Positions 1,805-27,590 of a DNA stretch of 31,277 nucleotides are shown here, piece by piece. A model generated the notes under the pieces. It searched no databases, was not told the origin of the DNA, and worked only from the letters and a program-made list of their open reading frames with translations. This stretch comes from Myxococcota bacterium. Lineage in GTDB: Bacteria > Myxococcota_A > UBA796 > CAJQPC01. The stretch is taken from the NCBI GenBank assembly GCA_036012755.1, contig DASCPX010000008.1:1-31277 (forward strand), written 5' to 3'. Positions within the stretch are counted from its first letter, which is position 1. Each line of letters begins with the position of its first letter. Made by a program: the position numbers and the translations under genes.

Positions 1805-1970
1805 ATGCACGCTCATCTTCCAACACACACACTCATCCACGCGGAGTTGTCACTCCGTCGTCTCTCGAGCACCGACCTGAGCACATGGACCGGTATCGCC
1901 CCTTCTACGGTGCGTTCCTACCTCTGCGGGGCACGCACGATGTCCCGAGTGGCGTTGGTGGGGATGTTCC
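1805..1970 (+). pseudogene. Truncated XRE/Cro-like helix-turn-helix protein
   Basis: GGAGA before ATG 1805; ELSLRRLSSTDLSTWTGIAPSTVRSYLCGAR fits the XRE HTH pattern. The frame then runs into the antisense strand of istB (open to 2293). Confidence 0.5.
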
Positions 1971-2430
1971 AGGTACCCCATCTCATCGATCACCAGCAGA
2001 TCGATGCGTGCGAGGCGGTTCAGCAGCTTTCGCGACGACCGGTCGGCGAGGCTTGCGTACATGTCGTCGAAGAGGTCCTGGGCCTTGATGAACAGGCCGC
2101 GATGTCCAGCCTCCAGCGCCTTCAGCAGGATGCCGATCGACAGCCCCGTCTTGCCGACGCCGGTCGGGCCGACCAGGACCAGATTGCCGGCGCGGTCCAT
2201 GAAGTCGAGGCGCGCCAGCTGCTCGATGACGGCGCGCTGCACGCCGGGCTGACGGTCCCATGGGAAGGACTCCAAGGCCCACCTCTCGGGTAGCTTCGCG
2301 CGGCCGATGCGGTGCCCCAGAAAGCGGGTCTGTTGGCAGTCGTACTCGGCGCGCAGCAGGTCGCGCAGGAACTCGGCGTAGCTGGGGCCTTCGTTCTCGG
2401 CGCGCTCGAGGTGCTCGTCGAGGATTGTGT
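1970..2430 (-). mobile_element. istB: IS21-family helper ATPase IstB, internal fragment
   Basis: SYAEFLRDLLRAE, RAKLP..LESFPW, Walker A GPTGVGKT, Walker B LLVIDEMGYL. Similarity stops right after GYL, the N-terminus is missing and no istA lies nearby. Confidence 0.85.
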
Positions 2431-2762
2431 CGCGACGGACGGGCCGGACTGCGCCCTGAGTGGGAGCGAAGGCCAGAAAGGGACCCTCGGAGGTGCCAAC
2501 TAGCGCCCCAGGCATGAGCCTGAAGCCCGGCTGAGCCACCAAGGCGACGGGTGCGGGGCTCTCGCCCGGAATGCTGCTAGCTTGGGAGGGGCCTAATGCT
2601 TCCTATCCATGCTGCCTGGTGGCGTCAGCGCGAGGAGAGCTGAAAGACCACGTTTGTCAAAGGACTTCCAGGACTATGTCCCCGTCAGGACGACGGCGGT
2701 CGAGCCCTTGGCTGGTACCGCCATTGGTCAATGAGGCAACAGCCAGCCCAGTAGCAGGAGCG

Positions 2763-4152: not shown

Positions 4153-4905
4153 TCAGGGCAGCGGAGAGGCCCCCATCATCCACGCGTGACCCCACAGGGC
4201 CAGGCCAAAGGCCGCGAGACCCACCAACGAGCGCCAGCCGATGCCCGGCAGGTCCAGGCGACAGCGTCCTCGGATGACCGCCGCCAGCGGCACGAAGGAG
4301 GTCTGGCGGGCGAAGCCAGCCCACTGTTCGGGGTGGCTGCGGGAGCGTCTGTGGTCGATGTGGAGGCTGCCAAGGATGGCCAGGGCGAGCAAGCCCCCGA
4401 AGAACAACACAGACGCCAGGTCCCCGTTCGGGAAGAGGTGGGCTCCCGCCCAGAGCGCGACGCCCCAGTTGGCCGGATGCCGCGTGATGGTCTGGATTCC
4501 GACAGGGCCCGCGGCCATGGCGTCCTCCTGGCCGGTCTGGGTCCCGCTGCGGGTCGTGTAGCCGGCGACGAGCATCACGAAGGCAACCGGCATGACGACC
4601 AGCGGCACCCAGCGCTGCCACGGAGCAGGGGCCCAGACCTCGAGGTAGGGCGCCTCGGACCAGGCCCAGATCATCCCGACAAGAGCAAGGGCCATCGGGG
4701 CCGACAACAACCCCTGCTGTCCCTTCGGCCCCAGGCGCCGGATCATCGCGTCGCGCACCCACTCCATGGTGCCGACCAGGTGCAGGAGCACGAAGGCACT
4801 CGAGCACAACCCGAGCAACCAGAGCCAGGGGACCGGGTCTGCCTCGGCATCCTCGACCGCGGGAGCGGCTGCCAGGGCGGCACTCATCAACAGGAGACTG
4901 GTCAT
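4153..4905 (-). CDS. nnrU: NnrU-family membrane protein
   Basis: Signature ITRHPANWGVALWAGAHLFPNGD and TSFVPLAA, several TM helices. Start placed at MTSLLL (4905) to avoid overlap with the divergent gene. Confidence 0.85.
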   Translation of the reverse strand: MTSLLLMSAALAAAPAVEDAEADPVPWLWLLGLCSSAFVLLHLVGTMEWVRDAMIRRLGPKGQQGLLSAPMALALVGMIWAWSEAPYLEVWAPAPWQRWVPLVVMPVAFVMLVAGYTTRSGTQTGQEDAMAAGPVGIQTITRHPANWGVALWAGAHLFPNGDLASVLFFGGLLALAILGSLHIDHRRSRSHPEQWAGFARQTSFVPLAAVIRGRCRLDLPGIGWRSLVGLAAFGLALWGHAWMMGASPLP

Positions 4906-4939
4906 GGCCCACCGCTTGCTCTCGGGAGGATAGATCCAC

Positions 4940-5281
4940 ATGACCATGAACGAGCTCCAGAGCGACCTCGAGCAAGAGCAGAGAGCCGGCGAGGAGCGGG
5001 TGCTGCGCTGCCGGCGGTGCTCCTCGGAGCTGGCCGACGCCGAGCACGAGATCCCGGCCAGCCGGCGCGCCTACATGAACCCCCACGGCCTGGTCCGCGA
5101 AATCGTCGCCCTCACGGACGCGCGAAACGTCGTCGGTGACGGCAGGCGCCACGCCGAGCACAGCTGGTTCCCCGGCCACACCTGGGAGGTCCTGTTCTGC
5201 GCGAGCTGCCAACACCACGTGGGCTGGCGCTTCGAGGGACCGGAGATCTTCTACGGTCTGCTCGTGGAAGCGCTGGCCTGA
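4940..5281 (+). CDS. Cereblon-like CULT domain protein
   Basis: Two CxxC Zn pairs (CRRC, CASC), NPHG motif, HSWFPGHTW and HVGWRF providing the three cage tryptophans. Confidence 0.9.
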   Translation: MTMNELQSDLEQEQRAGEERVLRCRRCSSELADAEHEIPASRRAYMNPHGLVREIVALTDARNVVGDGRRHAEHSWFPGHTWEVLFCASCQHHVGWRFEGPEIFYGLLVEALA

Positions 5282-5344
5282 GGCCACCTGTGCGCGTCGC
5301 GACAGAACAGGGTAGGTCTAAAAAGACCGTCTGTTGGAGATCCC

Positions 5345-5566
5345 ATGGCGAAGTCCCGACCCAGTGTCCAGAAGCGCCGCGCCGAGGCCGCCAAGCTCGA
5401 GAAGAAGCAGGCGAAGGCTGCCCGCAAGGCCGCACGGGATGCAGCCAAGGCCGACCGCACCGCCGAAGCAGGCGTGGACCCTGATCTCGAGGGCATCGTC
5501 GGCGGCCCGCAGCCCCGACTCTACGAGGGCGGGGACCCCATCTGGCACGACGACGACCTCGCCTAG
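5345..5566 (+). CDS. Small hypothetical protein, basic N-terminus and acidic C-terminus (73 aa)
   Basis: GGAG RBS before the ATG; K/R/A helix followed by DPDLEGIVGGPQP; GC3-rich codons. Confidence 0.7.
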   Translation: MAKSRPSVQKRRAEAAKLEKKQAKAARKAARDAAKADRTAEAGVDPDLEGIVGGPQPRLYEGGDPIWHDDDLA

Positions 5567-5598
5567 CAAAGAAGGCCACAGGGAGTAGCATCACGGGC

Positions 5599-6894
5599 AT
5601 GCCCGTCAGCTCGCTCGACCTCGTCCGCCACTTCCAGACACGCACGGCTGAAGCCAGCGGCGTCCTCGACCACACGACAGAGCTCTCCGAGAGGATCGGA
5701 GCAGCACGAGAGCAGGTGCTCGCGGAGCGCCAGGAGGCGCTCGCGGCGCTGGCCCAGGCCTACCTGCCCGCCCTCGAGCGCCAGGCCCTGCAGCGGGCCG
5801 AGAAGCTCACCGGCTTTCGGGGCTTCACCCGGCGGGATCCCCTGCAGGCCCTGGCCCACCAGGCGAGCGTCCTGCAAAAGACCGTCGCCCGCATAGAGGC
5901 AGACGAGCGCTACCAGCGCCGGCAGTTCCTCGTCGGTCCGCACGGGGAGTTCACGACAGAGCTCGAAGAGCGGACCTCGCTCCTGGAGCCCTGGGACAAG
6001 GAGTGCGAGCGCTTCGAGTCCCAGCCCGGCTTCGAGGAGCTGCTCGAGACCCGCTACGACACCGCCGAATACGGCGTCTCCTTCTTCGACGCCCGCTACT
6101 GGCGGCTCTGGGCGGCTGGGGACCGGATCTGCAACGCCCTGGAGATGGACGACTTCGGCGACGACGTGCTGCCAGCCTATGGCAAGGCGGCTGGGGAGCG
6201 CCTCAAGTGGCTGCGCCAGGTCAAGGAGACCCAGGACGAGATCGACGCCGTGCACGACCTCGTCCAGCGATACGACGCGGCGCTGGCCATGCAACCTCGT
6301 CTCCCCGAGACCATGCTCTCGACTTGCTGGGGTGCCCTCGCCGAGCACCTCGAACACGCCGACGCCGCCCTGTTGGAGCAGTGGCTCGGAGACCCACCCG
6401 ACCGGGCGCTGCTCATCGCCTTGCGCCGGATGGCCGGCCAGGGTGCGAAGGTCGAGTTCCTCGACGAGTTCGCCTCCGGGCTCGAAGCCCAGGCCACCGC
6501 GCTGCAGACCCGCCTCGCCAAGTACGAGCGCAAGGCCCGGAAGTACTCTCGCGGGAAGTACGTGGGCGCCCACTTCGACGAGTCGAACATGGACAGGAAG
6601 TTCGGGGACAAGTCCAAGAAGATGCGGTCGAACCTCCAGAAGACGCAGGTCCTCGTCGATCGCATGGTGCGCTACGACACCTACGAGCGCTTCTCCCTGT
6701 CCAATGACCCCGAGCTCTGGTGGTACGAGTTCACCCGCAAGCGTCCGCCGCGTCACTGCCCGAGGCTCCGCAGCTGGTACGACCGCAACCCCGACCGCTC
6801 GCCCAAGGTGGACGTCGAGGAGCGCGAGGCGCGGGCCGTCGCAGCCGCCACCGCGGCCCAGGCAGAGGAAGAGGACCTGGGGTACATCTCGTGA
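5599..6894 (+). CDS. Hypothetical alpha-helical/coiled-coil protein (431 aa), first gene of the rSAM operon
   Basis: Strong GC3 bias, E/R/A/L-rich heptads, no signal peptide or TM segment. Stop overlaps the next start (GTGA). Confidence 0.85.
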   Translation: MPVSSLDLVRHFQTRTAEASGVLDHTTELSERIGAAREQVLAERQEALAALAQAYLPALERQALQRAEKLTGFRGFTRRDPLQALAHQASVLQKTVARIEADERYQRRQFLVGPHGEFTTELEERTSLLEPWDKECERFESQPGFEELLETRYDTAEYGVSFFDARYWRLWAAGDRICNALEMDDFGDDVLPAYGKAAGERLKWLRQVKETQDEIDAVHDLVQRYDAALAMQPRLPETMLSTCWGALAEHLEHADAALLEQWLGDPPDRALLIALRRMAGQGAKVEFLDEFASGLEAQATALQTRLAKYERKARKYSRGKYVGAHFDESNMDRKFGDKSKKMRSNLQKTQVLVDRMVRYDTYERFSLSNDPELWWYEFTRKRPPRHCPRLRSWYDRNPDRSPKVDVEEREARAVAAATAAQAEEEDLGYIS

Positions 6895-8360
6895 GTCGAC
6901 TGGTCGTCGTCTCCTACGCCATCAACGGACGGGGCATGGGACACCTCACGCGCCAGCTGGCGATCCTCCGCTGGGTGCGCAGGATCGGCCTGGCGCTGGA
7001 CCGGAGGGTCGAGTGCTGGGTCCTGACCAGCTCGGAAGCAGACACCCTGGCCCGCCGCGAGGGCTTCTGCTCCTTGAAGATCCCCTCGAAGGCGATGTTC
7101 CGGGACGCGGGCATGGAGCCGGCCCGCTACCTCCGCATCGCGCGAGCCTGGGTCCTCAACGCGGTGGCCGGACTCCAACCAGATCTGTTGCTGGTGGACA
7201 CCTTCCCAGGCGGCTCCTTCGGCGAGCTGACAGCTGTCCTCGAGCTCGCGAAGAGGCGCGTGCTCGTGGCCCGAGCTGTGCGGCCGGAGTTTGCACGACA
7301 GGACGCCTACCAGGCGCTCCTTCCGCTCTATTGTCGCGTCATCGTGCCAGAGGCCAGCGACGTCGGCCCCATCCTGCTGCGCGGACGGGACGAGGTCCTC
7401 TCACGGGACGAGGCCAGGCGAAGGCTGGGGGTGTCACGCCGCACGGTCTACGTCTCCCTCGGTGGAGGCGGGGATGACAGCGCCGACACCGTCCTCCCGA
7501 CCCTGGTCGAGGCGCTCCGGGGCAGCTGGGACGTAGTCGTCGGGGCTGGCCCGCTCTACACGGGCGCAGAGATGCGCGGAGCCGGGGTGGTCTGGATGGA
7601 CCGCTACGTGCCGGCGGAGCTCTTCGCCGGCCTGGACGCCGCGGTGAGCGCCGGTGGCTACAACAGCTTCCACGAGCTGATGCACCACGGGGTCCCGACG
7701 GTCTTCCTGCCCCAGGCCCGCATCGCAGACGACCAGCACCTCCGAGCCGAGCGAGCCCGGGCTGCGGGCGCGGGACGGGTAGCGCGAGACCTCGGCGAGG
7801 TCCCGGGGCTGCTCGATGATCCCGGCTCCAGCGAGGCCGCGAGAGCGCTCGTTCCCCACAACGGCGCCAAGGCGGCAGCCCTCGCAGCGCTCAGGGGCCT
7901 GATCCCGGACGCAGAGCTCGACCACGCGGACGCGCTCTTGGACGCCGGCTTCGTCCGCGTGCTGGACCGAGCGGGGCCGGAGCTCGTGAAGCTGGTCGGC
8001 GGCGCCGCGCCGGCGGAGCGCTTCCTGGAGGTCTGCGACCAGTACGGGGTTCACCAGGAGGGCCCCTCGCTGCTGAAGAGCCTCGGGCGCAAGTTCCCGG
8101 CGGCGACCCCGGGCCAGCTCCTGGACGCAGCAGAGGTGCTCTTCCCGGTCTGGGCGGGCTTCGACGACTGGATGGGGGCCGTGAGCCTCCTGCGCGCCGT
8201 GCCGACCCAGCGCAGCTACAGCATCGGCCGCTTCGCTCGCGACATGGCCGCGTGGCTGGGGGGCCAGGAGGACCTCTTCGACGCCCTCCGCGACTTCACG
8301 CGCCTGGAGGGACGAGGCCGAAAGGCGGTGGCGTCCGTCCTCACAGAGCTGTCGCCGTGA
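6891..8360 (+). CDS. GT-B glycosyltransferase (MurG/GT28 C-terminal-like) with helical C-terminal extension
   Basis: GTG start overlapping the upstream TGA; NGRGMGHLTR, PDLLLVDTFP, VSLGGGG, AVSAGGYNSFHE, DDQHLRA. Confidence 0.82.
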   Translation: MSRLVVVSYAINGRGMGHLTRQLAILRWVRRIGLALDRRVECWVLTSSEADTLARREGFCSLKIPSKAMFRDAGMEPARYLRIARAWVLNAVAGLQPDLLLVDTFPGGSFGELTAVLELAKRRVLVARAVRPEFARQDAYQALLPLYCRVIVPEASDVGPILLRGRDEVLSRDEARRRLGVSRRTVYVSLGGGGDDSADTVLPTLVEALRGSWDVVVGAGPLYTGAEMRGAGVVWMDRYVPAELFAGLDAAVSAGGYNSFHELMHHGVPTVFLPQARIADDQHLRAERARAAGAGRVARDLGEVPGLLDDPGSSEAARALVPHNGAKAAALAALRGLIPDAELDHADALLDAGFVRVLDRAGPELVKLVGGAAPAERFLEVCDQYGVHQEGPSLLKSLGRKFPAATPGQLLDAAEVLFPVWAGFDDWMGAVSLLRAVPTQRSYSIGRFARDMAAWLGGQEDLFDALRDFTRLEGRGRKAVASVLTELSP

Positions 8361-9388
8361 CACGCAACAGGATCCTGGCGGGCATGCGCCTGGGGCGGCC
8401 CGAGACCGGACCGACGCAGGTGCACATCGACATCACCAACAGCTGCAACGCCGCCTGCGTGACCTGCTGGGACCACAGTCCGCTGCTCGGGACCCCCCGC
8501 TCGGCGGACTGGAAGCGCCGACGCATGCCCGCCGATGTCTTCGAAGACCTCCTCGCCCAGCTCGAGGCGATGGGCTCCGTGGACGCCGTCGTCATCAGCG
8601 GCATGGGCGAACCCCTCACCCACCCCCACGTCTACGAGATGCTGGCGGCGGTCAAGCGCCGCGGATGGCACCTGACCGTGCTCAGCAACCTCCTCGCCGC
8701 CGACCTCGAGACCCTCGTCGGGCTCGGCGTGGACAACCTCCTCGTCGGCGTCCACGGCGCCACGCCCCAGACCTACGCCAGCTTCCACCCGGGCTGGACC
8801 GAAGAGCACTTCAGCCGGCTCTGCCGCAGCCTCCGGCGCCTGACCCGGGCGGGGGTCCAGACTCGCCACGTCCAGGTCATCAACCGACACACCGCCGACG
8901 AGGTCGTCGAGATGGTGCGCTTCGGCCGGCTCTTTCGAGCACAGCGCGTCAACTTCAAGCTCGCGGCCCTGGCCGACGGCACCGAGACCAGCCGGACCAC
9001 TCCGGAGCAGCTGTTGTGGCTCCAGGACGAGGGCATCCCCGAGGCCCGGGAGCTGGCCGTGCAGCTCGACGTGAACACCAACCTCGAGCTCTTCGAGGCC
9101 CAGGTCGCCGCGGCGGCACGAGCGGAGGCTACGACCACGCCCATCGGCGATGTCGGCTGCTGGATGGGCTTCGTCTACACCCGCATCACGGTGGACCAGG
9201 AGGTCCTCTACTGTTGCAACACGAACGTGCGGGTCGGGAGCTTGCAGCAGGCATCGCTCTCCGAGCTCTGGGGAGGCGCGCGGTGGCAGAAGCTGCGTGA
9301 GAGCCTGGCGGCTGGGCACTTCTTCAGGGGCTGCGAGGCCTGCGGCAAGTTCGAGCAGAACAAGAAGTGGGCGGCCCGCCTTGTCTGA
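8357..9388 (+). CDS. Radical SAM protein with Twitch/SPASM-type auxiliary domain
   Basis: GTGA overlap; CNAACVTC (CxxxCxxC), SGMGEPL; C-terminal C-x17-CC...CEAC. Confidence 0.9.
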   Translation: MTRNRILAGMRLGRPETGPTQVHIDITNSCNAACVTCWDHSPLLGTPRSADWKRRRMPADVFEDLLAQLEAMGSVDAVVISGMGEPLTHPHVYEMLAAVKRRGWHLTVLSNLLAADLETLVGLGVDNLLVGVHGATPQTYASFHPGWTEEHFSRLCRSLRRLTRAGVQTRHVQVINRHTADEVVEMVRFGRLFRAQRVNFKLAALADGTETSRTTPEQLLWLQDEGIPEARELAVQLDVNTNLELFEAQVAAAARAEATTTPIGDVGCWMGFVYTRITVDQEVLYCCNTNVRVGSLQQASLSELWGGARWQKLRESLAAGHFFRGCEACGKFEQNKKWAARLV

Positions 9389-10193
9389 GCCGAGGCCAAC
9401 GGTCGAGTGGCAGGTCGCCGGGGCCTGCAACCATGACTGCAGCTATTGCATACAGTCTTCGAAGTACCGGAGGGGGCGACCGGAGCGCAGCGAACTCGAG
9501 CGCGCGCTCGCCGTGTTCGGGTCCTTGCCGGGGCGCTGGGAGATCAAGTGCAGCGGCGGCGAGGCCTTCGCCCACCCCCTGTTCCTACAGTTTGCGGTCC
9601 CCGGACTCATGGAGACCGACCACGACATCTCGGTGCTCACCAACTTCTCTGCATCCCACACAGACTTGATGCGCTTTGCGGCGCTCACCCGGGGGCGGCT
9701 GAAGGTCTTCAGCGCCTCTCTGCACCTGGAGTTCACGACCCTTCGAGCCTTCGCGGACAAGGCCGCGTGGTTCGTGGCCCAGCTGGATCCAGAGGTCGAC
9801 TTCGTGGTGAACCAGGTCGTGCTCCCGAGCCGCCTGGATGAAGCCCGCCGCTGCCGAGACGAGCTCGAGGATCGCGGCCTGCGCTGGTTCGCCCAGTGGC
9901 TGAAGGTCCGCGGCCACCCCGTCGACTACGACGGCGACATCGAGGCCCTCGTCGGCTCTCGCCCGGCCAACCGAAGCCCCAGCTTCCGGGGACGCCCATG
10001 CTTCGCGGGCGCGCTCTACTTCACCGTCGACGCGGACGGGAGTGCCTGGTCCTGCCGCACCGCCAAGCGCCGCGACGAGGGCCGCATGGGCAACCTCCTG
10101 CATGGCTCGGTGGCGCTCGGATCCGGAGCCTCGCCCTGTCCCTACGACATCTGTCCATGCACCGTCCCCGTCAATCGAGGCATGGTCCAGTGA
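9381..10193 (+). CDS. Radical SAM protein (paralog A)
   Basis: TTG start overlapping the previous stop by 8 nt; CNHDCSYC, SGGEAF, LTNFS; C-terminal C-x17-C...CPYDICPC. Confidence 0.88.
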   Translation: MSEPRPTVEWQVAGACNHDCSYCIQSSKYRRGRPERSELERALAVFGSLPGRWEIKCSGGEAFAHPLFLQFAVPGLMETDHDISVLTNFSASHTDLMRFAALTRGRLKVFSASLHLEFTTLRAFADKAAWFVAQLDPEVDFVVNQVVLPSRLDEARRCRDELEDRGLRWFAQWLKVRGHPVDYDGDIEALVGSRPANRSPSFRGRPCFAGALYFTVDADGSAWSCRTAKRRDEGRMGNLLHGSVALGSGASPCPYDICPCTVPVNRGMVQ

Positions 10194-11017
10194 GCCCCCG
10201 GTACCCCCTCGAGGGCGTGGTGTCCTGGAACATGAACACCACCTGCGACTACCGCTGCAGCTACTGCACGCAGCGCTTCGCAGACGACCGCAAGCAGTGG
10301 GCGCGCGATCTTCCTCGCTTCATGAAGGCCTTCGCTGCCCTGCCGGGGGACTGGGAGATCAAGCTCTCCGGGGGCGAACCCTTCCGCCACCCGGACTTCC
10401 TCGGCGCCGTGGCCGCGCTGATCGACGGCGGCCTGCGGGTGTCCGTGGTCACCAACCTCAGCGCCTCGGACGAAGTGCTCGCCGAGTACGCCTCGATCGT
10501 GAACGAGCGGCCCGGCGTCTTCAGCGCCTCCCTCCACCTCGAGCACAGCTCGGCCGAGGACTTCTTCTCCAAGCTCGCGACCTTCGAGGCCCGGTATGCG
10601 GGCGGGATCTCGGCCACGATCGTCGCCACGCGCTCGAACATGGAGCTCGTCGACACCCTGCGCGAGCGCTGGCCGGCGCTGAAGGTCCAGCCCGAGAAGC
10701 AGGACCGCCAGGTCATCTCGTATGAGCCGGAGGAGCGGGACAGGCTGCAGAGCTGGGGCGGTCACAACGGCACGGGATGGATCGACCCGGACTTCTCGGG
10801 ACGACCCTGCTGGGCGGGCGCCCGCTACTTCATCGTGGACCACAAAGGCGACGCCTACCGGTGCTACCCGGCGCGACGCCTCCGCGCGGAGTCCATGGGC
10901 AACCTGCTCGACGGTAGCTTCCAGATCGCACTGGGAGCTAGTGTCTGTGCGTACGACTACTGCAACTGCACCGTGCCGCAACAGCGCGGCATGGTGAGCA
11001 TCTCTCGGAGGGCCTGA
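10190..11017 (+). CDS. Radical SAM protein (paralog B)
   Basis: GTGA overlap; CDYRCSYC, SGGEPF, VTNLS; C-terminal C-x17-C...CAYDYCNC. Confidence 0.9.
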   Translation: MSPRYPLEGVVSWNMNTTCDYRCSYCTQRFADDRKQWARDLPRFMKAFAALPGDWEIKLSGGEPFRHPDFLGAVAALIDGGLRVSVVTNLSASDEVLAEYASIVNERPGVFSASLHLEHSSAEDFFSKLATFEARYAGGISATIVATRSNMELVDTLRERWPALKVQPEKQDRQVISYEPEERDRLQSWGGHNGTGWIDPDFSGRPCWAGARYFIVDHKGDAYRCYPARRLRAESMGNLLDGSFQIALGASVCAYDYCNCTVPQQRGMVSISRRA

Positions 11018-11496
11018 TGGGACTGGCCGGAAACATGAAACTCAGCACGTTCATCACCGCGCTCGCATGCACGGGTGTCATCGGAGGTGTGCTCGCCTAC
11101 GTCTTCTGGCCCGATCCGGAGCCAGCGCCGGAGCCGACCCCGCACGTGGCCACCACCCACACAGAGGTCCCCCAACCGGAAGTGGTGCCGACCCTGCCCG
11201 ATCCCGTCCCTGCGGGCTCGGACCTCGACGCCGAGCTCCTGTCATGGGCAGGCAGGGACCTCGGCGGCGCCTCGAAGAAGAAGGACGTCAGCTCGGGCAA
11301 GCCCTACAAGATCAACGTCTACCAGGACGACACCTTCTCCACCGCCAACCGCGCGAAGGTCGACCTCGACCGAGACGACAAGTGGGACATCAAGATCACC
11401 TACGGCGACGTCATCAGCCGCAAGGTGTCCTCCGCCGACGACGAGGACTACGACGTCGAAGAGGTCTGGAACGGCGAGGCCTGGGTCAGCCCCTGA
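11017..11496 (+). CDS. Membrane-anchored hypothetical protein with Pro-rich linker and Asp-rich domain
   Basis: TGATG overlap (alternative start 11035); one TM helix, PDPEPAPEPTP linker, DLDRDDKWD and SADDEDYD motifs. Confidence 0.8.
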   Translation: MGLAGNMKLSTFITALACTGVIGGVLAYVFWPDPEPAPEPTPHVATTHTEVPQPEVVPTLPDPVPAGSDLDAELLSWAGRDLGGASKKKDVSSGKPYKINVYQDDTFSTANRAKVDLDRDDKWDIKITYGDVISRKVSSADDEDYDVEEVWNGEAWVSP

Positions 11497-11506
11497 GCAG
11501 GCGAAC

Positions 11507-12535
11507 TCAGAAACCCCGCTGGCGACGGTACTTGCGCCGCTTTTGGCCCTCCTTGGTGCGCGCCCGCTTTCGCTGTCGTCGCTGTTCGTACTGCAGCTCG
11601 CGTTCGAGCTTCATGAAGCTCTCGACCCGAGCGAGCTCGATGCGTCCCTGGGCGATGGCCTCGGCGACTGCACAGTCAGGCTCGCCCTCGTGCTGGCAGT
11701 CCCGGAAGCGACAGGAGGCGACGAGCTCGCTCACGTCCTCGAAGGCGCCTTGCAGATCGGCCTCGTCGAGCCCGAGCTCCCGCATACCGGGGGTGTCGAC
11801 GAGGGCGCCGCCCCCTGGAAGAGGCAGGAGTCGGCGGGCCGTCGTCGTGTGGCGACCCCGAGCGTCGTGCTCCCGGATCTCGCCGATGTCCTGAGCGGGT
11901 TCTCCGAGCAGGGCGTTCACCAGCGTGGACTTGCCGACCCCAGATGAGCCGACGACAGCGACAGTGCGACCTCCTCCGAGCCAGGGCGCGAGCCCATCGA
12001 GGCCCCAGCCCTTCAGGGCAGACAGCGCGACGACGTGCTCGCCGGGGACGAGCTCGGACAGGCCGCTCCGGTCCTCGACGAGGTCGGCCTTGGTGAGGAC
12101 CACTACAGCCTCGGCGCCGCCAGCGCGAACGACCGCGAGGTAGCGCTCCAGGCGTCGCACGTTGAAGTCGCGGTTCAGCGAGGTCGCCACGAAGACGGTG
12201 TCGACGTTGGCGGCCACGACCTGGCCGGTGGAGTGGGTCCACACCGTCTTTCGGACGAAGCGGGTTCGGCGTGGGAGGACCGCCTCGACAGACGCCGGGA
12301 CAGCGTGGGTCGGCGTCGCACGGAGAGCGACCCAGTCCCCGACGGCACAGCGGGCGAGGTCTCCAGCCTCCGCGAGGGGGAGGGTGGCGCGAAGGCAGGC
12401 ATGAGCACACTGGACCTCCACCTGCGCGCGATGCTCGGCGAGCACGCGACCGGGGAAGGTCTCAGGTAGGTTCAAGTCATTGAAAACGGTAGAGAAGACA
12501 GAGTCCCAGCCAAGCTGGGTGAGATCGAAGATCAA
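11507..12535 (-). CDS. rsgA: Ribosome small subunit-dependent GTPase A
   Basis: Circularly permuted GTPase motifs TKAD, GSSGVGKST, GRHTTT, DTPG; Zn finger CRFRDCQHEGEPDC; OB-fold AVGDWV. Confidence 0.95.
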   Translation of the reverse strand: MIFDLTQLGWDSVFSTVFNDLNLPETFPGRVLAEHRAQVEVQCAHACLRATLPLAEAGDLARCAVGDWVALRATPTHAVPASVEAVLPRRTRFVRKTVWTHSTGQVVAANVDTVFVATSLNRDFNVRRLERYLAVVRAGGAEAVVVLTKADLVEDRSGLSELVPGEHVVALSALKGWGLDGLAPWLGGGRTVAVVGSSGVGKSTLVNALLGEPAQDIGEIREHDARGRHTTTARRLLPLPGGGALVDTPGMRELGLDEADLQGAFEDVSELVASCRFRDCQHEGEPDCAVAEAIAQGRIELARVESFMKLERELQYEQRRQRKRARTKEGQKRRKYRRQRGF

Positions 12536-12702: not shown

Positions 12703-13650
12703 TCAGCCCGCGGATGCCTCGCAGATCGAGCGGTAGGGCTCCCCCTCGCTCGCCGAGCACAGGCATGGGTAGTCGTTCCAGCAGCCACCAGCGGCCCAGC
12801 CGATCACGGCACAGTCCTCTTCCCTGCTCGTCGACACGCACTCCAGCCCGTGGCTGTTGTTCGGCTCGCCCGAGCACCAGTTCGTGTAGCCCCACGCCGT
12901 GCCGTCGTTCCACTCCCAGGTCCCCTCGGTGGTCTGGTCGTTGCCTCCCACCCACCAGTAGCTGGAGGCATAGGTCAGCGCCGTGGTGTAGAGCCAGCTG
13001 TCCTCGTCCGCGTCGTCGGCGCTGGCGAGCTCGTAGCCGTAGAGCTCGCAGAAGGTCTGTGCCGTATACCAGTTCGAACCCGTCGTACAGAACAGGTAGG
13101 TCTCGTCTTCGTAGAACTCCATGTTGCAGGGGCATGGCGCCCCGTCGTCGACGACGCCGTCACAGTCCTGATCGGCACCGTCACAGTCCTCTGTGTTGCC
13201 AGGGTAGACGCTGGCGTCCGTGTCGTCGCAGTCCCCGCTCGTGGCAGCGTATCCGGACGGTTCGGCGCAGTCTTCCACGGTCGAGTCCTCGACGCCGACC
13301 CCGTCCCCATCGGAGTCCTCGTACCAGGTCGAGGACGCGACACCCTCGTCGATGGACCCATTACAGTTCTCGTCCACGTCGTCACAGGTCTCTGTGGCGC
13401 CGGGATACACACCGTCGTCGACGTCGTCGCAGTCCGTGCAGTCCTCGACGTAGTTGTTGGGGGCTTCGCAGGACTCCGTGGAGCGCTCGGGATCCCCGAA
13501 CCCGTCGTGGTCGATGTCCACACAGAAGGTGCGCTCGAGGCAGCTGTCCACGGGCTTCGAGTCCAGCGGAGACGACTCTGAGACCTGCGAGTCCGCGTCG
13601 GAGCCCGGGGTCTCGGGGAGCTTCGTACAGGCGAGCAGCACCAGGAACAC
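12703..13650 (-). CDS. Lipoprotein with DCDD (MopE-related/putative metal-binding) repeats and C-terminal C-type lectin domain
   Basis: MFLVLLA-C; two DCDD..VYPG..E.CD..D..C.G..D repeats; WVGGND..EG.W.W, EPNN, EDC, WND. Confidence 0.88.
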   Translation of the reverse strand: MFLVLLACTKLPETPGSDADSQVSESSPLDSKPVDSCLERTFCVDIDHDGFGDPERSTESCEAPNNYVEDCTDCDDVDDGVYPGATETCDDVDENCNGSIDEGVASSTWYEDSDGDGVGVEDSTVEDCAEPSGYAATSGDCDDTDASVYPGNTEDCDGADQDCDGVVDDGAPCPCNMEFYEDETYLFCTTGSNWYTAQTFCELYGYELASADDADEDSWLYTTALTYASSYWWVGGNDQTTEGTWEWNDGTAWGYTNWCSGEPNNSHGLECVSTSREEDCAVIGWAAGGCWNDYPCLCSASEGEPYRSICEASAG

Positions 13651-17439: not shown

Positions 17440-18699
17440 TCACTGCTCGGGGACCACCTTCACCAGCCTGAAGTTCGCCGGGTCGTAGAAGTCCGAGATC
17501 CACCCGTTGATGTCCTCGACGCTCAGCTCCTGCGTCGCCAGCATGAGGTCCCGGTAGTAGTACTCCGGCCATTCCTGGGTGATCTCGGAGACCCGATCCC
17601 ACATCAGGTTCCAGGGGGCCTGGTTCGAGCGGGCCATCTCGCCGAGGAGGTAGCTGATGGCTTGCTCCCGCTCGGTCTCGGTGATGCCGTCGACGTGGAA
17701 TGTCGCCAGCGTGTCCCGCATCACGTCGATCGCCTCCTCCCCCGTCTCCACCTTCGAGTACGAACTCAAGCGGTAGCAGGTCTCGCTGTTTCCGAGCCAG
17801 TCCGAGCCGCTGACCCCGTAGGTCAGCCCCGAGTCGTGGCGCAGGGCTCGGCTCATGCGGCTGTAGAAGTGCCCGACCAGCACGTGGTGAGCGACGGACT
17901 GGTGCGAGGTGTGGGGATCTCCGTGCACGAGCCCGGGGCGATACAGCGAGAAGTAGACCTGGGTCAGCTCCGGCAGCTCGACGACGACGTCACCGACGTC
18001 CCGCTCGGCGAGATCAGGAAGGGTGATCTCCATCTCCGGCAGGCGCGAGGTGGACTCGGGGAGGAGGCCCTCTGTGAGCGCGCGAGCTTCTTCGAGGCTG
18101 ATGTTCCCCGAGTAGGCGACGACACGGTCCGGCACCGTGACGATGGCCATCTTCGCCTCCGCGTTGTCCTGGGCCTTCGTCGAGACCTTGGCGGGCTTCT
18201 CGACGTCACGCCGGCGTGGGTCCTCCTCTACGTACATCGCCCGCTCCGCCGCTTGACGACGCACGAACTCGGGGTCCGAGAGCCTCGCCTTCCAGCCCGC
18301 CTTCTGGCCCTTCTTGCTGCGCTTGAGTTCGTCGACGTCTATGTCTGTCGACAGCAGGATGTCCGACAGCAGCTGGGCGCAGGCAGCCATGTCCTCGCGC
18401 AGACAGAGGGCTGATATCGTTGCTGTTCTGGAGCTGCTGTACAGATCGATGTCAGCGACCAGGTCCTCTGCCCGCTGGCGGAACACGCCCTCTGAGTCGT
18501 AGTACTGGTAACCCCAGGCGTCACGGATGTGCTCGTCCTGCCAGTAGGGGCTGAAGTCGCCGACCGGAAAGCGGACGACCATCTTCACGAGGTCTGCCCG
18601 ATCGTCCTCGACGACGATCAGCGTGTCCCCGGACGGAAGCTCCTCTACCTGGGCTTCGAAGGCGAGCGCAGAGGCGACGATGGCGAGGTGCATGCTCAC
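17440..18699 (-). CDS. M16 peptidase-like protein, non-catalytic subunit
   Basis: No HxxEH; has SRMSRALRHDSGLTYGV (R/Y pair) and GITETE; ATGA-type overlap with the upstream M16 gene. Confidence 0.8.
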   Translation of the reverse strand: MSMHLAIVASALAFEAQVEELPSGDTLIVVEDDRADLVKMVVRFPVGDFSPYWQDEHIRDAWGYQYYDSEGVFRQRAEDLVADIDLYSSSRTATISALCLREDMAACAQLLSDILLSTDIDVDELKRSKKGQKAGWKARLSDPEFVRRQAAERAMYVEEDPRRRDVEKPAKVSTKAQDNAEAKMAIVTVPDRVVAYSGNISLEEARALTEGLLPESTSRLPEMEITLPDLAERDVGDVVVELPELTQVYFSLYRPGLVHGDPHTSHQSVAHHVLVGHFYSRMSRALRHDSGLTYGVSGSDWLGNSETCYRLSSYSKVETGEEAIDVMRDTLATFHVDGITETEREQAISYLLGEMARSNQAPWNLMWDRVSEITQEWPEYYYRDLMLATQELSVEDINGWISDFYDPANFRLVKVVPEQ

Positions 18700-20027
18700 T
18701 CCTTGTGGGCGTAGATGCGCACGGGCGTGCCGTTGGTGACGTAGGTCTCCCAGACTCGGGCGATGTCCTCGAGGGTGACCCCCGCGATCTCGTCCGCCCG
18801 GGAAAATGCCAGCTGCGCATCATCGCGGTTGCGCTGGGCCCAGCCGATGCGCTCCGCCATCTCGTCCGCGTAGTAGACGTCCAGGAGGAGCTCTCGACGC
18901 ATGCGCTTGGTGACCCGTGCCAGGGCCTCCGCGTCCAGCCACGCGCCCTCGCCCAGGACCCCGAGCGCCTCGTCCATCTCTGCCCAGGTCCGATCCGGCG
19001 AGCCCAGCGGCAAGGTGATGGCCAGGAACATGAACATGCCTCCCGAGCGGTCGACCGCGCCGGCGCCGGAGCCCTCCAGCGCGCCCTTCTGCACCTCGAC
19101 CAGCTGCTTGCGGAAGAGGTTCACCTCGTCACCGCTGACGAGATCCAGCATCACCTCGACCGCCGCGGCGTCCTCGTGCTCCAGGGATGGGAGTGGGTAG
19201 GCGAGGCCAAAGGCGCGGATGGGCGGGATGTCCTCTGTGACGTCGACCTCGGCGGGGAAGTCCCACGTCAAGGTGTCGGGAACGTTCGTCTTTTCAGCTG
19301 CGCCACCGGGAAGCTCGGCGTAGAGCTCCCCGACCTTGTCGATGGTCTCCTGTCCATGAACAGGACCGGAGACGACCAGGTGCATGTTGTCAGCTCGGTA
19401 GTAGCGCTCCGAGAAGGTCGCGACGTTCTCCATCGTGAAGTTGTCGATGTCGTCCAGCGTGCCCACCGGAGAGCGCTCGTAGGGATGGCCCTCCCACATC
19501 TTCGTCTGGAGCTCGACAAACATGCGCGCGAGGGGATCGTTCGTGGTGCTCATGCGGAGCTCCTCCGCGACGACCTTCTTCTCCCGGTCCAGGGTCGCCT
19601 CGTCGGGGTCGATGGACAGGAAGTGCTCGGCGCCCATACGCAAGACCTCGTCATGGTATTGTGGTGCTATCTCCGACACATAGGCAGTACTGTTCTTTGA
19701 CGTCCAGGCGTTCTTGTAGCCACCATGGATGACGTGGTAGCGGCTGTAGGAGGCCGGACCGGCGTCCGGCGGCGCAGAGAAGACCAGGTGCTCGAAGAGG
19801 TGGGCCAGTCCACGCTCTCCGTCCAGCTCGTGGGCGCTGCCGACGTGCACCCACATCTGGGTCGCCACGACCGGCATCTCCGGGTCGCTGTAGACACTGA
19901 CCGTCAGACCGCTCTCCAGGGTCGTGTGGGTCAGGCCTCGCTCGATCGGTCCGTACTCGACGGGCTCCTCGACAGGCTCCTCGCCGAGGCCAGTATCCTG
20001 GGCGAGAACCAACGATATCAGTAACAT
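18696..20027 (-). CDS. M16 (pitrilysin/insulinase) zinc peptidase, catalytic subunit
   Basis: VGSAHE..GERGLAHLFEHL (HxxEH), NAWTS, EKKVVAEE, HPY..SPVGT, YYRADNM. Confidence 0.92.
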   Translation of the reverse strand: MLLISLVLAQDTGLGEEPVEEPVEYGPIERGLTHTTLESGLTVSVYSDPEMPVVATQMWVHVGSAHELDGERGLAHLFEHLVFSAPPDAGPASYSRYHVIHGGYKNAWTSKNSTAYVSEIAPQYHDEVLRMGAEHFLSIDPDEATLDREKKVVAEELRMSTTNDPLARMFVELQTKMWEGHPYERSPVGTLDDIDNFTMENVATFSERYYRADNMHLVVSGPVHGQETIDKVGELYAELPGGAAEKTNVPDTLTWDFPAEVDVTEDIPPIRAFGLAYPLPSLEHEDAAAVEVMLDLVSGDEVNLFRKQLVEVQKGALEGSGAGAVDRSGGMFMFLAITLPLGSPDRTWAEMDEALGVLGEGAWLDAEALARVTKRMRRELLLDVYYADEMAERIGWAQRNRDDAQLAFSRADEIAGVTLEDIARVWETYVTNGTPVRIYAHKE

Positions 20028-23931: not shown

Positions 23932-23973
23932 GGGCCGATGATATTGGCCGCTGGCACAGAAACGGGACTCCAG

Positions 23974-25059
23974 ATGCTCCTTGTCCTCCTTGGCGTCGCC
24001 CGGGCAACCTGCCCGGCCGAGGTCGGAACCCCCGACGAGCTGACCTGCAGCAGCAAGATCAGCGGCGCCATCGCGGCGGCGGACACCAGCCACCTGGGCG
24101 GCGAGTGCGGAGCCGAGGAGTGCTACACCTGCGGCAAGCCCTACGCGAACGAGTCCCAGATCGCGCCAGAGGCGATCTACTCCTTCTCCTGCCAGAAGGC
24201 CGGCACGGTGAGGCTGCTCATCACGGATCTGCCCTGCGATCTCGACATCTACGTGCTCGACGACACCTGCGACCCCTACTACGGCTGCGAGCACGGCAGC
24301 ACCGCCCCCTACGCGGTCGACGACGAGGTCATCTTCGACTGCCTCGCCGGGAGCACCTACTACGTGGTCGTCGAGGCCTACGGCACGAACCACCTCGACC
24401 TGGCCAGCGGCCCCTGCACGGACGACGGCACCTCGACCGGCGCGGTCTTCGACCCGACCTACACCCTGTCCTTCGACGTGAGCGCCTCGACCGGCTGCGC
24501 AGAGGACTGCGACGACGGTGAAGACAACGACCTCGACGGAGACATCGACTGCGCGGACAGCGACTGCCTGACCGAGGCGCTCTGCTGCGATGACGACGGC
24601 GACGGCTACTGGAAGGAAGACTGCGGCGGCGACGACTGCGACGACACCCTGGACACCGTCCACCCCGGCGCTCCAGAAGACGGCGGCACCGGCGACGGCA
24701 TGGGCGACGGCCTCGACAACGACTGCGACGACCTCGTCGACGAGGGCACCCTCGACTACGACGACGACGGCGACGGCTTCACGGAGAACGAGGGCGACTG
24801 CGACGACGAGGATCCGGACAGGAGCCCAGGCGCCGTGGAGATCCCCGACAACGGCGTCGACGAAGACTGCGACGGCGAGGACGAGGTCACTCCAGAGGTC
24901 GAAGACACGGGCGACACGGGGAGCCGCACGCCGGGCAACCCAGAGGGGAGCGCGAAGCAGGGTCCCTGCGGGTGCGCCGCGCCGGTGTCAGGCTCAGTGG
25001 CGGTCCTGGGACTCCTGGGCTTCCTCGTCGCGCGACGTCGCGAACAACCCGCTCACTGA
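23974..25059 (+). CDS. Surface protein with PPC-like domain, DCDD repeats and MYXO-CTERM-like anchor
   Basis: Short signal MLLVLLGVARA; DLDIYVL and TYYVVVEAY; DDDGDG..DCDD repeats; tail CGCAAPVSGSVAVLGLLGFLVARRR. Confidence 0.85.
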   Translation: MLLVLLGVARATCPAEVGTPDELTCSSKISGAIAAADTSHLGGECGAEECYTCGKPYANESQIAPEAIYSFSCQKAGTVRLLITDLPCDLDIYVLDDTCDPYYGCEHGSTAPYAVDDEVIFDCLAGSTYYVVVEAYGTNHLDLASGPCTDDGTSTGAVFDPTYTLSFDVSASTGCAEDCDDGEDNDLDGDIDCADSDCLTEALCCDDDGDGYWKEDCGGDDCDDTLDTVHPGAPEDGGTGDGMGDGLDNDCDDLVDEGTLDYDDDGDGFTENEGDCDDEDPDRSPGAVEIPDNGVDEDCDGEDEVTPEVEDTGDTGSRTPGNPEGSAKQGPCGCAAPVSGSVAVLGLLGFLVARRREQPAH

Positions 25060-25822: not shown

Positions 25823-26194
25823 TTGATCACGGCGGTCGCCAAGGCCCGGCTGAGGCCCGTCGTCCGGGCCCTGCTCCACGATCTCGTCGCGGAGGAGTTC
25901 GGGCTCCAGTTCCTGGACGAGGCGACCGAGCGGCTGCTCGCGCGCATCCGAGGCATGCCGCCCCACCTCGGCGGGGGCATGGCCATGCTCACCCTGATGT
26001 GGGATCTGAGCTCCGTCGCAGAGGTCGGTCACCGGGCCCACCAGCTCGCCCCGTCCCTGCGTCGGGAGCGCTTCGCGTCCTGGAAGACAGGACCGGTGGG
26101 CCCCTGCCGGGACTGGACCCAGTTCTACGAGAAGATGGGCGTCTTCGTCTTCTTCTCGACGATGGAGGACCATGGCCAACACGTTGAACTGTGA
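25823..26194 (+). CDS. Small helical partner of the GMC oxidoreductase (hypothetical)
   Basis: GAGG before TTG 25823 (start uncertain); overlaps the GMC start. Resembles the small subunits that often precede GMC genes. Confidence 0.6.
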   Translation: MITAVAKARLRPVVRALLHDLVAEEFGLQFLDEATERLLARIRGMPPHLGGGMAMLTLMWDLSSVAEVGHRAHQLAPSLRRERFASWKTGPVGPCRDWTQFYEKMGVFVFFSTMEDHGQHVEL

Positions 26195-27590
26195 GGTCCT
26201 CGTCGTCGGCAGCGGGCCCAGCGGGGCGGTCACCGCGGCGATGCTCGCCGAGGCGGGTCGGGACGTGCTCCTCGTCGAAGAAGGGCCGAACCTGACCCCT
26301 GACAGCGCGGCGAACTTCAGCTACGCCGAGATGGACCAGAAGTACCGCAACGGCGGGCTCACGACGACCTTCGGAAAGACCAACATCACCTACATCGAGG
26401 GTCGCTGCGTCGGCGGCGCCAGCGAGATCAACGCTGCGCTCTACCACCGGCCCATCGACGAGGTGGTCGACGGCTGGGCCCGGGACTTCTCCATCTCGGA
26501 CTTCTCGGCGGATTCCCTCGGCGAGCACTTCCAGGTCATCGAGGACGAGGTCCGGTGCAGCGGACGCCCCTACGGCTTCTCGCCCGCGTCGATGAGGCTG
26601 AAGCAGGGCGCCGACGCCCTGGGCTGGAAGGAGGGGGAGATCGAGCGCTTCTGGCGCTTCGACGAAGAGGACGGGCGCTGGGGTCGTCGCCAGTCCATGA
26701 GCCGAACCTGCGTGCCGCGAGCGGTCGCGGCCGGCTGTCGCCTCGAGGCCGACCTGAGGGTTCGCAAGCTCATCTTCAAGGGCAATCGAGCCGTCGCCGC
26801 GTGCGCCCGCAGGCGCGCCAGGGACGTGAAGTTGACCTTCGATACGGTCGTGCTCTGCTGCGGCGCGGTCCAGACCCCCACGATGCTCCGGCGAAGCGGG
26901 GTCACCAAGGGCATCGGGGACTCCCTGCAGCTCCACCCCATGGTGCGCATCGCCGCGCGCTTCGACGACGTGGTCAACGACCCCGCATGGGGTGTGCCCG
27001 TCCGCCAGGTCAGCGAGTTCAAGCCCGAGCTCACCCTGGGCTGCTCGCACAGCTCCCTGCCACACATCGCCCTGTGGCTGGGCCAGGAGGTCGAGGACCG
27101 CAGGGCCATCCTCGCCAACTGGGACCACGTCGCGGTCTTCTACGCGGCGGTCTGCGGCAAGGGGACCGGCACCGTCCGGGCGCTGCCGCTCTTGGACGAG
27201 CCCCTGATCCGCTACGAGTTCGCCCCGAGCGACATGGGGCTCCTCGGCGAGGGCCTGGTTCGCCTCGGGGAGCTGGTGCTGGCTGCCGGTGCCAAGGAGA
27301 TCTTCTCACCCTTCGAGGGACAGCCCGGGCTCTCGACGCGACGCCAGGTGGAGAAGCTCAGGCGCCTGCCTTCGGGCACGGCGATCAACGTGACGACCAT
27401 CCACCTCTTCTCCAGCTGTCCCATGGGCGAGGACGAGCGCTGCCCGGTCGACTCCCACGGCAGGGTGAAGGGTCTGGACAACGTGCGCATCCACGACTCG
27501 AGCCTCTTGCCGACCTCGCCGGGGGTGAATCCCCAGGGCACGATCATGGCCATCGCACGCAGGAATACCGCCCACCTCCTGGGCGGATGA
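26172..27590 (+). CDS. GMC-family FAD oxidoreductase
   Basis: VVGSGPSG, GRCVGGASEINA, GAVQTP, HLFSSCPMG, DSSLLPTSPGVNPQGTIMA. Confidence 0.93.
   Translation: MANTLNCEVLVVGSGPSGAVTAAMLAEAGRDVLLVEEGPNLTPDSAANFSYAEMDQKYRNGGLTTTFGKTNITYIEGRCVGGASEINAALYHRPIDEVVDGWARDFSISDFSADSLGEHFQVIEDEVRCSGRPYGFSPASMRLKQGADALGWKEGEIERFWRFDEEDGRWGRRQSMSRTCVPRAVAAGCRLEADLRVRKLIFKGNRAVAACARRRARDVKLTFDTVVLCCGAVQTPTMLRRSGVTKGIGDSLQLHPMVRIAARFDDVVNDPAWGVPVRQVSEFKPELTLGCSHSSLPHIALWLGQEVEDRRAILANWDHVAVFYAAVCGKGTGTVRALPLLDEPLIRYEFAPSDMGLLGEGLVRLGELVLAAGAKEIFSPFEGQPGLSTRRQVEKLRRLPSGTAINVTTIHLFSSCPMGEDERCPVDSHGRVKGLDNVRIHDSSLLPTSPGVNPQGTIMAIARRNTAHLLGG

Follow-up and report, generated by a model that had tools for sequence, protein, structure and literature searches.

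A conserved six-gene cassette in Myxococcota combining an orphan helical protein with a near-invariant C-terminal serine, a glycosyltransferase and three radical SAM enzymes

The window analysed here is the whole 31,277-nucleotide stretch of contig DASCPX010000008.1 from a Myxococcota bacterium, and it carries six overlapping genes, named A to F (Table 1), that encode an orphan helical protein (A), a GT-B glycosyltransferase (B), three radical S-adenosylmethionine (SAM) enzymes (C, D and E) and a predicted membrane-anchored orphan (F). Many uncultured bacteria carry all six genes in this order, and protein A ends in a near-invariant serine, Ser431 in the window. Our preferred reading, held with somewhat less than even confidence and derived from sequence comparison, is that B glycosylates this terminal serine and that C, D and E tailor the attached sugar, which gives a self-contained six-gene system with a prediction for a single residue.

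Loci were collected with A as anchor, both from relatives and from the wider phylum, and complemented by 80 metagenome loci anchored on C; 106 loci were scored, with L054 left out as identical to the window. The order A-B-C-D-E-F was complete in 46 of them, 52 were cut by contig ends and 8 were incomplete despite sufficient room, and no altered gene order was observed among the 106. Stricter thresholds led to 44 complete loci, equal to 35 clusters at 90% identity. Two of the 8 broken loci (G001 and G318) have the missing genes on other contigs, and the cassette is split or dispersed in two metagenome loci. Decay or an assembly error may be behind two further cases, L043 (G263) with B and E in pieces and L053 (G207) with A, D and E in pieces. 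As the six reading frames are conserved across other genomes, they are not chance open reading frames (ORFs), and the six genes, which a first-pass annotation of the window had taken for one self-contained operon, prove to be strictly syntenic.

A survey of 301 genomes of the host phylum, including that of the window (G000), detected A in 21, B in 22, F in 24 and orthologues of C (>480 bits) in 20 genomes, a weaker sister clade of C alone being present in 5 more. A, B, C and F occur all together in the same 20 genomes; D and E were surveyed within the loci and in 9 chosen genomes. About 7% of the genomes sampled from this phylum, most of which is uncultured, have the cassette, with one intact copy per genome and highly conserved enzymes, and no relatives of C were found in viral contigs or plasmids. 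All 21 A-bearing genomes have B, and A adjoins B wherever the locus was read. The 21st A genome, G140 (99% complete), has a reversed, coupled B-A pair (L153:7119-10476, G140:C57); a search of this genome for C, D/E and F found none of them, and its A ends in DAS, hence the terminal serine is kept. The 22nd B genome, G199, contains sister enzymes. The A family comprises 407 clusters at 50% identity. Near homologues are mostly labelled as Myxococcota/Deltaproteobacteria, with some Alphaproteobacteria, Oligoflexia and others, and A homologues also carry the labels of at least two other phyla (Acidobacteriota and Candidatus Xenobia).

Protein A could be assigned to no Pfam family and matched no PDB entry, sequence searches with broad alignments included. 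Fold searches led to a best Foldseek expect value (E) of 0.02 and a best VIA Z of 10.3, the latter for a designed helical bundle, and an Atlas fold search returned just generic helical matches. In the AlphaFold2 model, A is an all-helical rod with a mean predicted local distance difference test score (pLDDT) of 94.6 for the body and a predicted template modelling score of 0.80, and clusters of conserved aromatic residues are present on this rod. Neither a signal nor a transmembrane or hydrophobic segment is present, and a comparison of A with B revealed no shared homology. The tail is poorly ordered in the model, with pLDDT decreasing from 74 to 34 across residues 401-431; it is acidic, then Ala-rich and finally Y/D-x-S, with GYIS as the C-terminus in the window and YxS or DxS in the family. 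Whether Y or D is found at position -3 depends on the clade, with one change on the FastTree tree.

All 72 closed A ORFs of the loci (72 of 72) have serine as their last residue, encoded by TCG (41), TCT (10), AGC (9), TCC (6), TCA (5) or AGT (1) and followed by TGA (65), TAG (6) or TAA (1) as stop codon, and it is retained where B starts well downstream without overlapping A. The idea that the serine merely results from the GTGA overlap between A and B was rejected in view of this spread of codons and stops together with the non-overlapping loci. When homologues of 405-470 aa were compared (every fourth of the first 120 matches plus the profile matches), all 145 ended in serine, down to about 20% identity, and position -1 was the sole fully invariant column; the background is about 7% of the 4051 ORFs of G000 ending in serine. 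Since all six serine codons are used and the homologues diverge to about 20% identity, the terminal serine is, as judged by this comparative evidence, under selection at the protein level.

B contains His18 within an NGxGxGH motif, Asp103, and a GGYN..E plus DDQ nucleotide-sugar motif, and its C-terminal lobe aligns with the uridine diphosphate (UDP)-glycosyltransferases YjiC, MurG and CalG1. Both features expected of a GT-B nucleotide-sugar glycosyltransferase, the GxGH His motif and GGxN..E with D/E-Q, are thus seen in B, the His motif being kept in 44 of the 44 complete loci and the DQ motif in 40. His18 and Asp103 presumably form a GT1-type catalytic dyad. B stays under every named cut-off (MurG, MGT, PseG and MJ1255; for example 35.8 bits against 260 for MGT) and shows weak matches to EryCIII-like and activator-dependent glycosyltransferase models; for its extra helical domain of about 150 aa no sequence match was found. 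In G199 a sister of B forms a fusion with GT4 and a twitch radical SAM enzyme: at L154:8321-14807 (G199:C20) a B-like glycosyltransferase is followed by a 1255-aa ORF (GT28-like, GT4 and twitch radical SAM) and another radical SAM enzyme.

C has the CxxxCxxC motif, and its Cys268, Cys286, Cys326 and Cys329 align with the C-terminal cysteines of BtrN, a BtrN-type pattern found in 44 of 44 cases; an extra invariant Cys287 adjoins the second ligand, at a position where BtrN has Phe. The best PDB match is BlsE, a nucleoside-sugar decarboxylase. BtrN is described in the available part of PMC9012708 as an aminocyclitol-oxidising dehydrogenase with a four-Cys auxiliary cluster, and a Cys acts as hydrogen donor during neomycin epimerisation by NeoN according to the accessible text of PMC10991966. 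Because of the BtrN-aligned cysteines and this precedent for a Cys donor, C is proposed to be a sugar epimerase or dehydrogenase, in which Cys287 may serve as the hydrogen donor. The nearest relatives of C outside the cassette adjoin, in some copies, genes for GT2/GT4, sugar transferase, epimerase, Wzt, methyltransferase and sulfatase, a surface-glycan setting that is clearest at L136/L137 and L138. The sister clade of C (L134-L139 and L144) occurs with 2-4 copies per genome in two families.

D and E are paralogues with 39% identity, each with an intact CxxxCxxC motif and five auxiliary C-terminal cysteines. Both can be aligned over their full length with a genuine member of the STM4011 family, C-terminal cysteines included, and score 45-65 bits on NF038073 (STM4011) against a cut-off of 200, which does not make them members. 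BlsE is their top PDB match as well. They also match models of prokaryotic viperins (pVip) over the first 90-100 residues (E up to 1.6e-13). An assignment as prokaryotic viperins was rejected, since the similarity ends near residue 120 and WEIK is found at the position of the KINF strand; on NF038283 (viperin) D and E reach 25-42 bits against a cut-off of 180. D and E may be further sugar-radical enzymes that possibly work as a heterodimer.

In F, a short conserved motif at the N-terminus is followed by a single transmembrane helix, a Pro-rich linker and a domain made up of a helix and a beta-meander. The helix was detected in 102 of 114 F homologues, 77 of these 102 following the positive-inside rule, and the outer domain is predicted to be extracytoplasmic. 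This domain, which is often doubled in relatives, was modelled confidently and shows Asp-rich loops (DLDRDDKWD) and invariant Lys, Arg and Asp residues. No Pfam family could be assigned, and fold searches (best E 0.24, best Z 5.8) gave only generic beta-meander matches. EF-hand/FG-GAP-like loops occur in Atlas neighbours, which are no more than leads because their scores are <0.9; calcium binding by the domain is a prediction. The host genome encodes, elsewhere and without the cassette, another protein that is divergent and has two F-like domains (L143:248-907, G000:C71), and stand-alone F homologues occur in G220, G268, G129 and G167.

As the serine is kept in G140 without C, D/E and F, it appears to be linked with B rather than with the radical enzymes, and since A is never seen without B, B would be the enzyme that acts on it. 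We propose that B moves a sugar from a nucleotide-sugar onto the terminal serine of the predicted flexible tail of A, for which its extra helical domain may be the docking site; the acceptor could be the hydroxyl group or, with formation of an ester, the carboxyl group. C, D and E would remodel the A-bound sugar by radical chemistry, and F might be an outward-facing, possibly calcium-binding, membrane-anchored partner. Genes for a peptidase, an exporter or a sugar-nucleotide synthase do not accompany the cassette, which makes modified A itself, with its sugar drawn from a housekeeping UDP-sugar, a more likely product than a metabolite that is set free. Glycosylation of a C-terminal serine has a precedent in TfpO/TfpM, as described in the available part of PMC9829042. 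The complete picture, in which a cytoplasmic GT1-like enzyme sugars the last residue of the rod, three radical SAM enzymes rebuild this sugar and a membrane partner reads or relays it, is to be regarded as more tentative than the modification itself. It was also suggested by the first-pass annotation that the operon attaches a sugar and tailors it radically, and that the two flanking genes could provide a substrate, scaffold or partner. Sugar attachment and tailoring fit the relatives of the enzymes, the chemistry being what we infer, and the role as substrate or scaffold is now backed for A by its invariant terminal serine and its constant association with B.

Several observations weigh against the proposed glycosylation of A. 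At least 13 of 259 unfiltered A homologues end in another residue, most of them being fragments, and P0265 (506 aa) is a full-length homologue with an extended tail that does not end in Ser. The homologues are kin, and the counts are consequently not independent, as seen from the reduction of the 44 complete loci to 35 clusters, and the case with B and A only comprises one genome, G140. GT1-like enzymes usually act on small molecules, and C, D and E have only weak PDB matches (E about 5e-10), which for the most part cover the shared radical SAM core. A looks cytoplasmic while the domain of F is predicted outside, which leaves their meeting unexplained. Finally, a C-terminus that is free and invariant would be expected of a docking motif just as much as of a modified site.

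This last point leads to the main rival in our ranking, namely that A is a scaffold or activator whose serine docks unmodified into B, with B to E making a small-molecule or lipid glycoside at the membrane that is bound or presented by F. We consider this unlikely, if still worth serious attention. It would explain the resemblance of B to small-molecule GT1 enzymes and its weak EryCIII-like and activator-dependent matches, the aromatic clusters on the long rod would suit a structural or membrane role, and strict pairing with B fits an obligate partner. However, docking motifs usually tolerate substitution, and neither Thr nor Ala replaces Ser in any of the 72 loci; moreover, the conserved neighbourhood of the cassette includes no gene for making an aglycone or a lipid, and the fold searches gave no P450-like fold for A, which is the fold of known glycosyltransferase activators. 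A less probable alternative is that A represents an unusually long precursor of the type known for ribosomally made peptides that are modified post-translationally (RiPPs), with the radical SAM enzymes decarboxylating or cross-linking its C-terminus and B glycosylating the product. Mycofactocin pairs a radical SAM enzyme for a C-terminal dipeptide with a glycosyltransferase (available part of PMC7491314), daptides are modified at a C-terminal Thr (available part of PMC10028931), and the conservation of Y or D at position -3 according to clade would agree with such a role. On the other hand, the serine persists in G140, where C, D and E were not found, neither a peptidase nor a PqqD/RiPP recognition element (RRE) domain is present in the cassette, the cysteine pattern of C corresponds to a single BtrN-type twitch cluster, and A has a folded, conserved body of 400 aa, in contrast to a leader peptide.

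A role in phage defence or conflict, through a modified nucleotide or glycosylation of a target with viperin-like D and E, appears improbable. The patchy occurrence of the cassette (20-21 of 301 genomes) and the pVip matches over the N-terminal part of D and E would be in line with defence, as would a short gene, G, that precedes A in 13 loci and has a possible nuclease-like motif, and the location of the G140 B-A pair about 1.2 kb from pglW (bacteriophage exclusion (BREX)/Pgl). Yet PADLOC, for which PglW as positive control was found with E 3e-264, matched just 4 of 124 flanking genes from 33 loci, two sigma-54 activators and two generic kinases; the similarity to viperin does not extend past about residue 120, with WEIK in place of KINF; and a single intact copy per genome with conserved enzymes, together with the lack of C relatives in viral contigs and plasmids, is not what such a role would suggest. 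Very improbable indeed is an overlooked, divergent form of a described pathway such as hopanoid side-chain formation, a nucleoside antibiotic or the STM4011 cassette. D and E are full-length remote STM4011 relatives, and the literature coverage excluded most subscription journals; against this, no NCBIfam cut-off was reached, the STM4011 partners are absent, and A and F are without family.

Regarding the layout of the operon, the same-strand arrangement with an overlap at every junction was confirmed, all five overlaps being exact: GTGA at 6891, 8357 and 10190 (A/B, B/C and D/E), 8 nt at 9381 (C/D, TTGTCTGA) and 1 nt at 11017 (E/F, TGATG). The start of F at 11017 is backed by the N-terminal motif M-x-LAG-x-MKL, which is conserved among homologues. 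The unit ends convergently at rsgA, as had been noted before, with a gap of 10 nt (Pfam RsgA, E 4e-47). The TAGCAT hexamer that the first-pass annotation had described as -10-like is indeed present; a role as promoter, though plausible, is unsupported because a sigma-70 scan of 4900-11700 called zero promoters and TANNNT lies 11-14 nt upstream in just 3 of 64 homologous A starts. The window sequence was matched in marine metagenome runs, and the listed datasets that hold it include no RNA dataset.

Clustering of neighbours, which covered ORFs of at least 60-70 aa, showed that only gene G and generic kinases recur beside the cassette, and within this range no conserved short precursor peptide was detected near it. 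Gene G encodes 115 aa, is located directly upstream of A in 13 distant-clade loci (e.g. L119:5498-5848) and is fused to A in P0349. It has the invariant motif DGxD..G(F/Y)E..TTExGDR and no Pfam or PDB match; a search for it in G000 was negative. The 73-aa ORF upstream of A in the window is not among the conserved neighbour clusters listed. Other features of the window are given in Table 1.

Table 1. Genes of the cassette and other features of the window (positions in nt)
Feature	Position	Strand	Remark
Gene A	5599-6894	+	431-aa orphan, all-helical rod (model); proposed acceptor or scaffold
Gene B	6891-8360	+	GT-B glycosyltransferase, GT1/GT28-like, extra C-terminal helical domain
Gene C	8357-9388	+	radical SAM enzyme with twitch domain, BtrN-like
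Gene D	9381-10193	+	TTG start; radical SAM enzyme, paralogue of E, distantly STM4011-like
Gene E	10190-11017	+	radical SAM enzyme, paralogue of D, distantly STM4011-like
Gene F	11017-11496	+	orphan, membrane-anchored (predicted)
TAGCAT hexamer	5586-5591	+	possible -10 box, 7 nt ahead of the ATG of A
73-aa ORF	5345-5566	+	upstream of A; Lys/Ala-rich N-terminus, acidic C-terminus
Yippee/Mis18-like zinc-binding protein	4940-5281	+	113 aa; not conserved beside the cassette
Lower-GC contig end	1-2542		57-61% GC
IS21 IstB-like ATPase	1850-2542	-	within the lower-GC contig end
Protein with MopE-type metal-binding repeats and C-type lectin domain	12703-13650	-	not a conserved cassette neighbour
M16 peptidase pair	17440-20027	-	not a conserved cassette neighbour
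Second MopE-repeat protein	23938-25059	+	not a conserved cassette neighbour
GMC oxidoreductase	26172-27590	+	not a conserved cassette neighbour

The absence of a described counterpart, already supposed in the first-pass annotation, held up, as no named family cut-off was reached and neither family models nor literature gave a pathway match. Hopanoid side-chain genes include HpnI, a GT2, and HpnJ, a radical SAM enzyme with a B12-binding domain; Pfam domains for GT2 or B12 binding had no match in any of the six proteins. Open-licence PMC and bioRxiv texts contained no description of the cassette that we found, subscription journals and supplements lying outside this coverage, and PMC7159879, in its available part, describes other systems. 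The enzymes fall into superfamilies that are already known, but we found no match for the system, for its two orphan families or for the chemistry that we propose. To our knowledge, radical tailoring of a protein-linked sugar is not known. If the proposed reading is right, the cassette would represent a new protein modification with three new radical SAM reactions on sugars, and it would provide first functions for two orphan families and for an uncharacterised STM4011-like branch of radical SAM enzymes.

Among known systems, mycofactocin (MftA-F) is similar in that a radical SAM enzyme and a glycosyltransferase are arranged around a conserved C-terminus (PMC7491314); its precursor, however, has 31 aa and ends in Val-Tyr, whereas the precursor here would be a folded 431-aa rod ending in Ser. 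Mycofactocin also involves a GT2, a chaperone and a peptidase, in contrast to the GT-B enzyme and three radical SAM enzymes of the cassette, which has neither chaperone nor peptidase; the short precursor, RRE/PqqD domain, peptidase and GT2 typical of mycofactocin and RiPP pathways are thus missing. BtrN, NeoN and BlsE take sugar-like substrates, and C shares the BtrN-type auxiliary cysteines, but the similarity is weak, the cassette has no aminocyclitol or nucleoside genes, and two orphan proteins stand at its core. The STM4011 cassette resembles ours in the full-length alignment of D and E with the STM4011 protein, yet its partners (ATP-grasp, HAD hydrolase and HemN-like radical SAM enzyme, as seen in G003) are absent here. 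An STM4011-type cassette lies at L155:2702-8837 (G003:C8) in this relative, which is without the six-gene cassette. In microcin E492 the modified C-terminal residue is a serine. Siderophore-microcins such as microcin E492 (MceC, MceI and MceJ) likewise carry a glycosylated moiety on a peptide C-terminus, as described in the available text of PMC6071977, while our cassette is without siderophore, exporter or MceIJ-like genes or a toxic peptide and has radical SAM enzymes instead. Finally, TfpO and TfpM are oligosaccharyltransferases that use lipid-linked donors; an oligosaccharyltransferase with an exported pilin as acceptor has no equivalent in the cassette, where B is a soluble nucleotide-sugar GT-B enzyme and A is without export signal, but they share with the proposed reaction of B the attachment of a sugar to the C-terminal Ser or Thr of a protein (PMC9829042).

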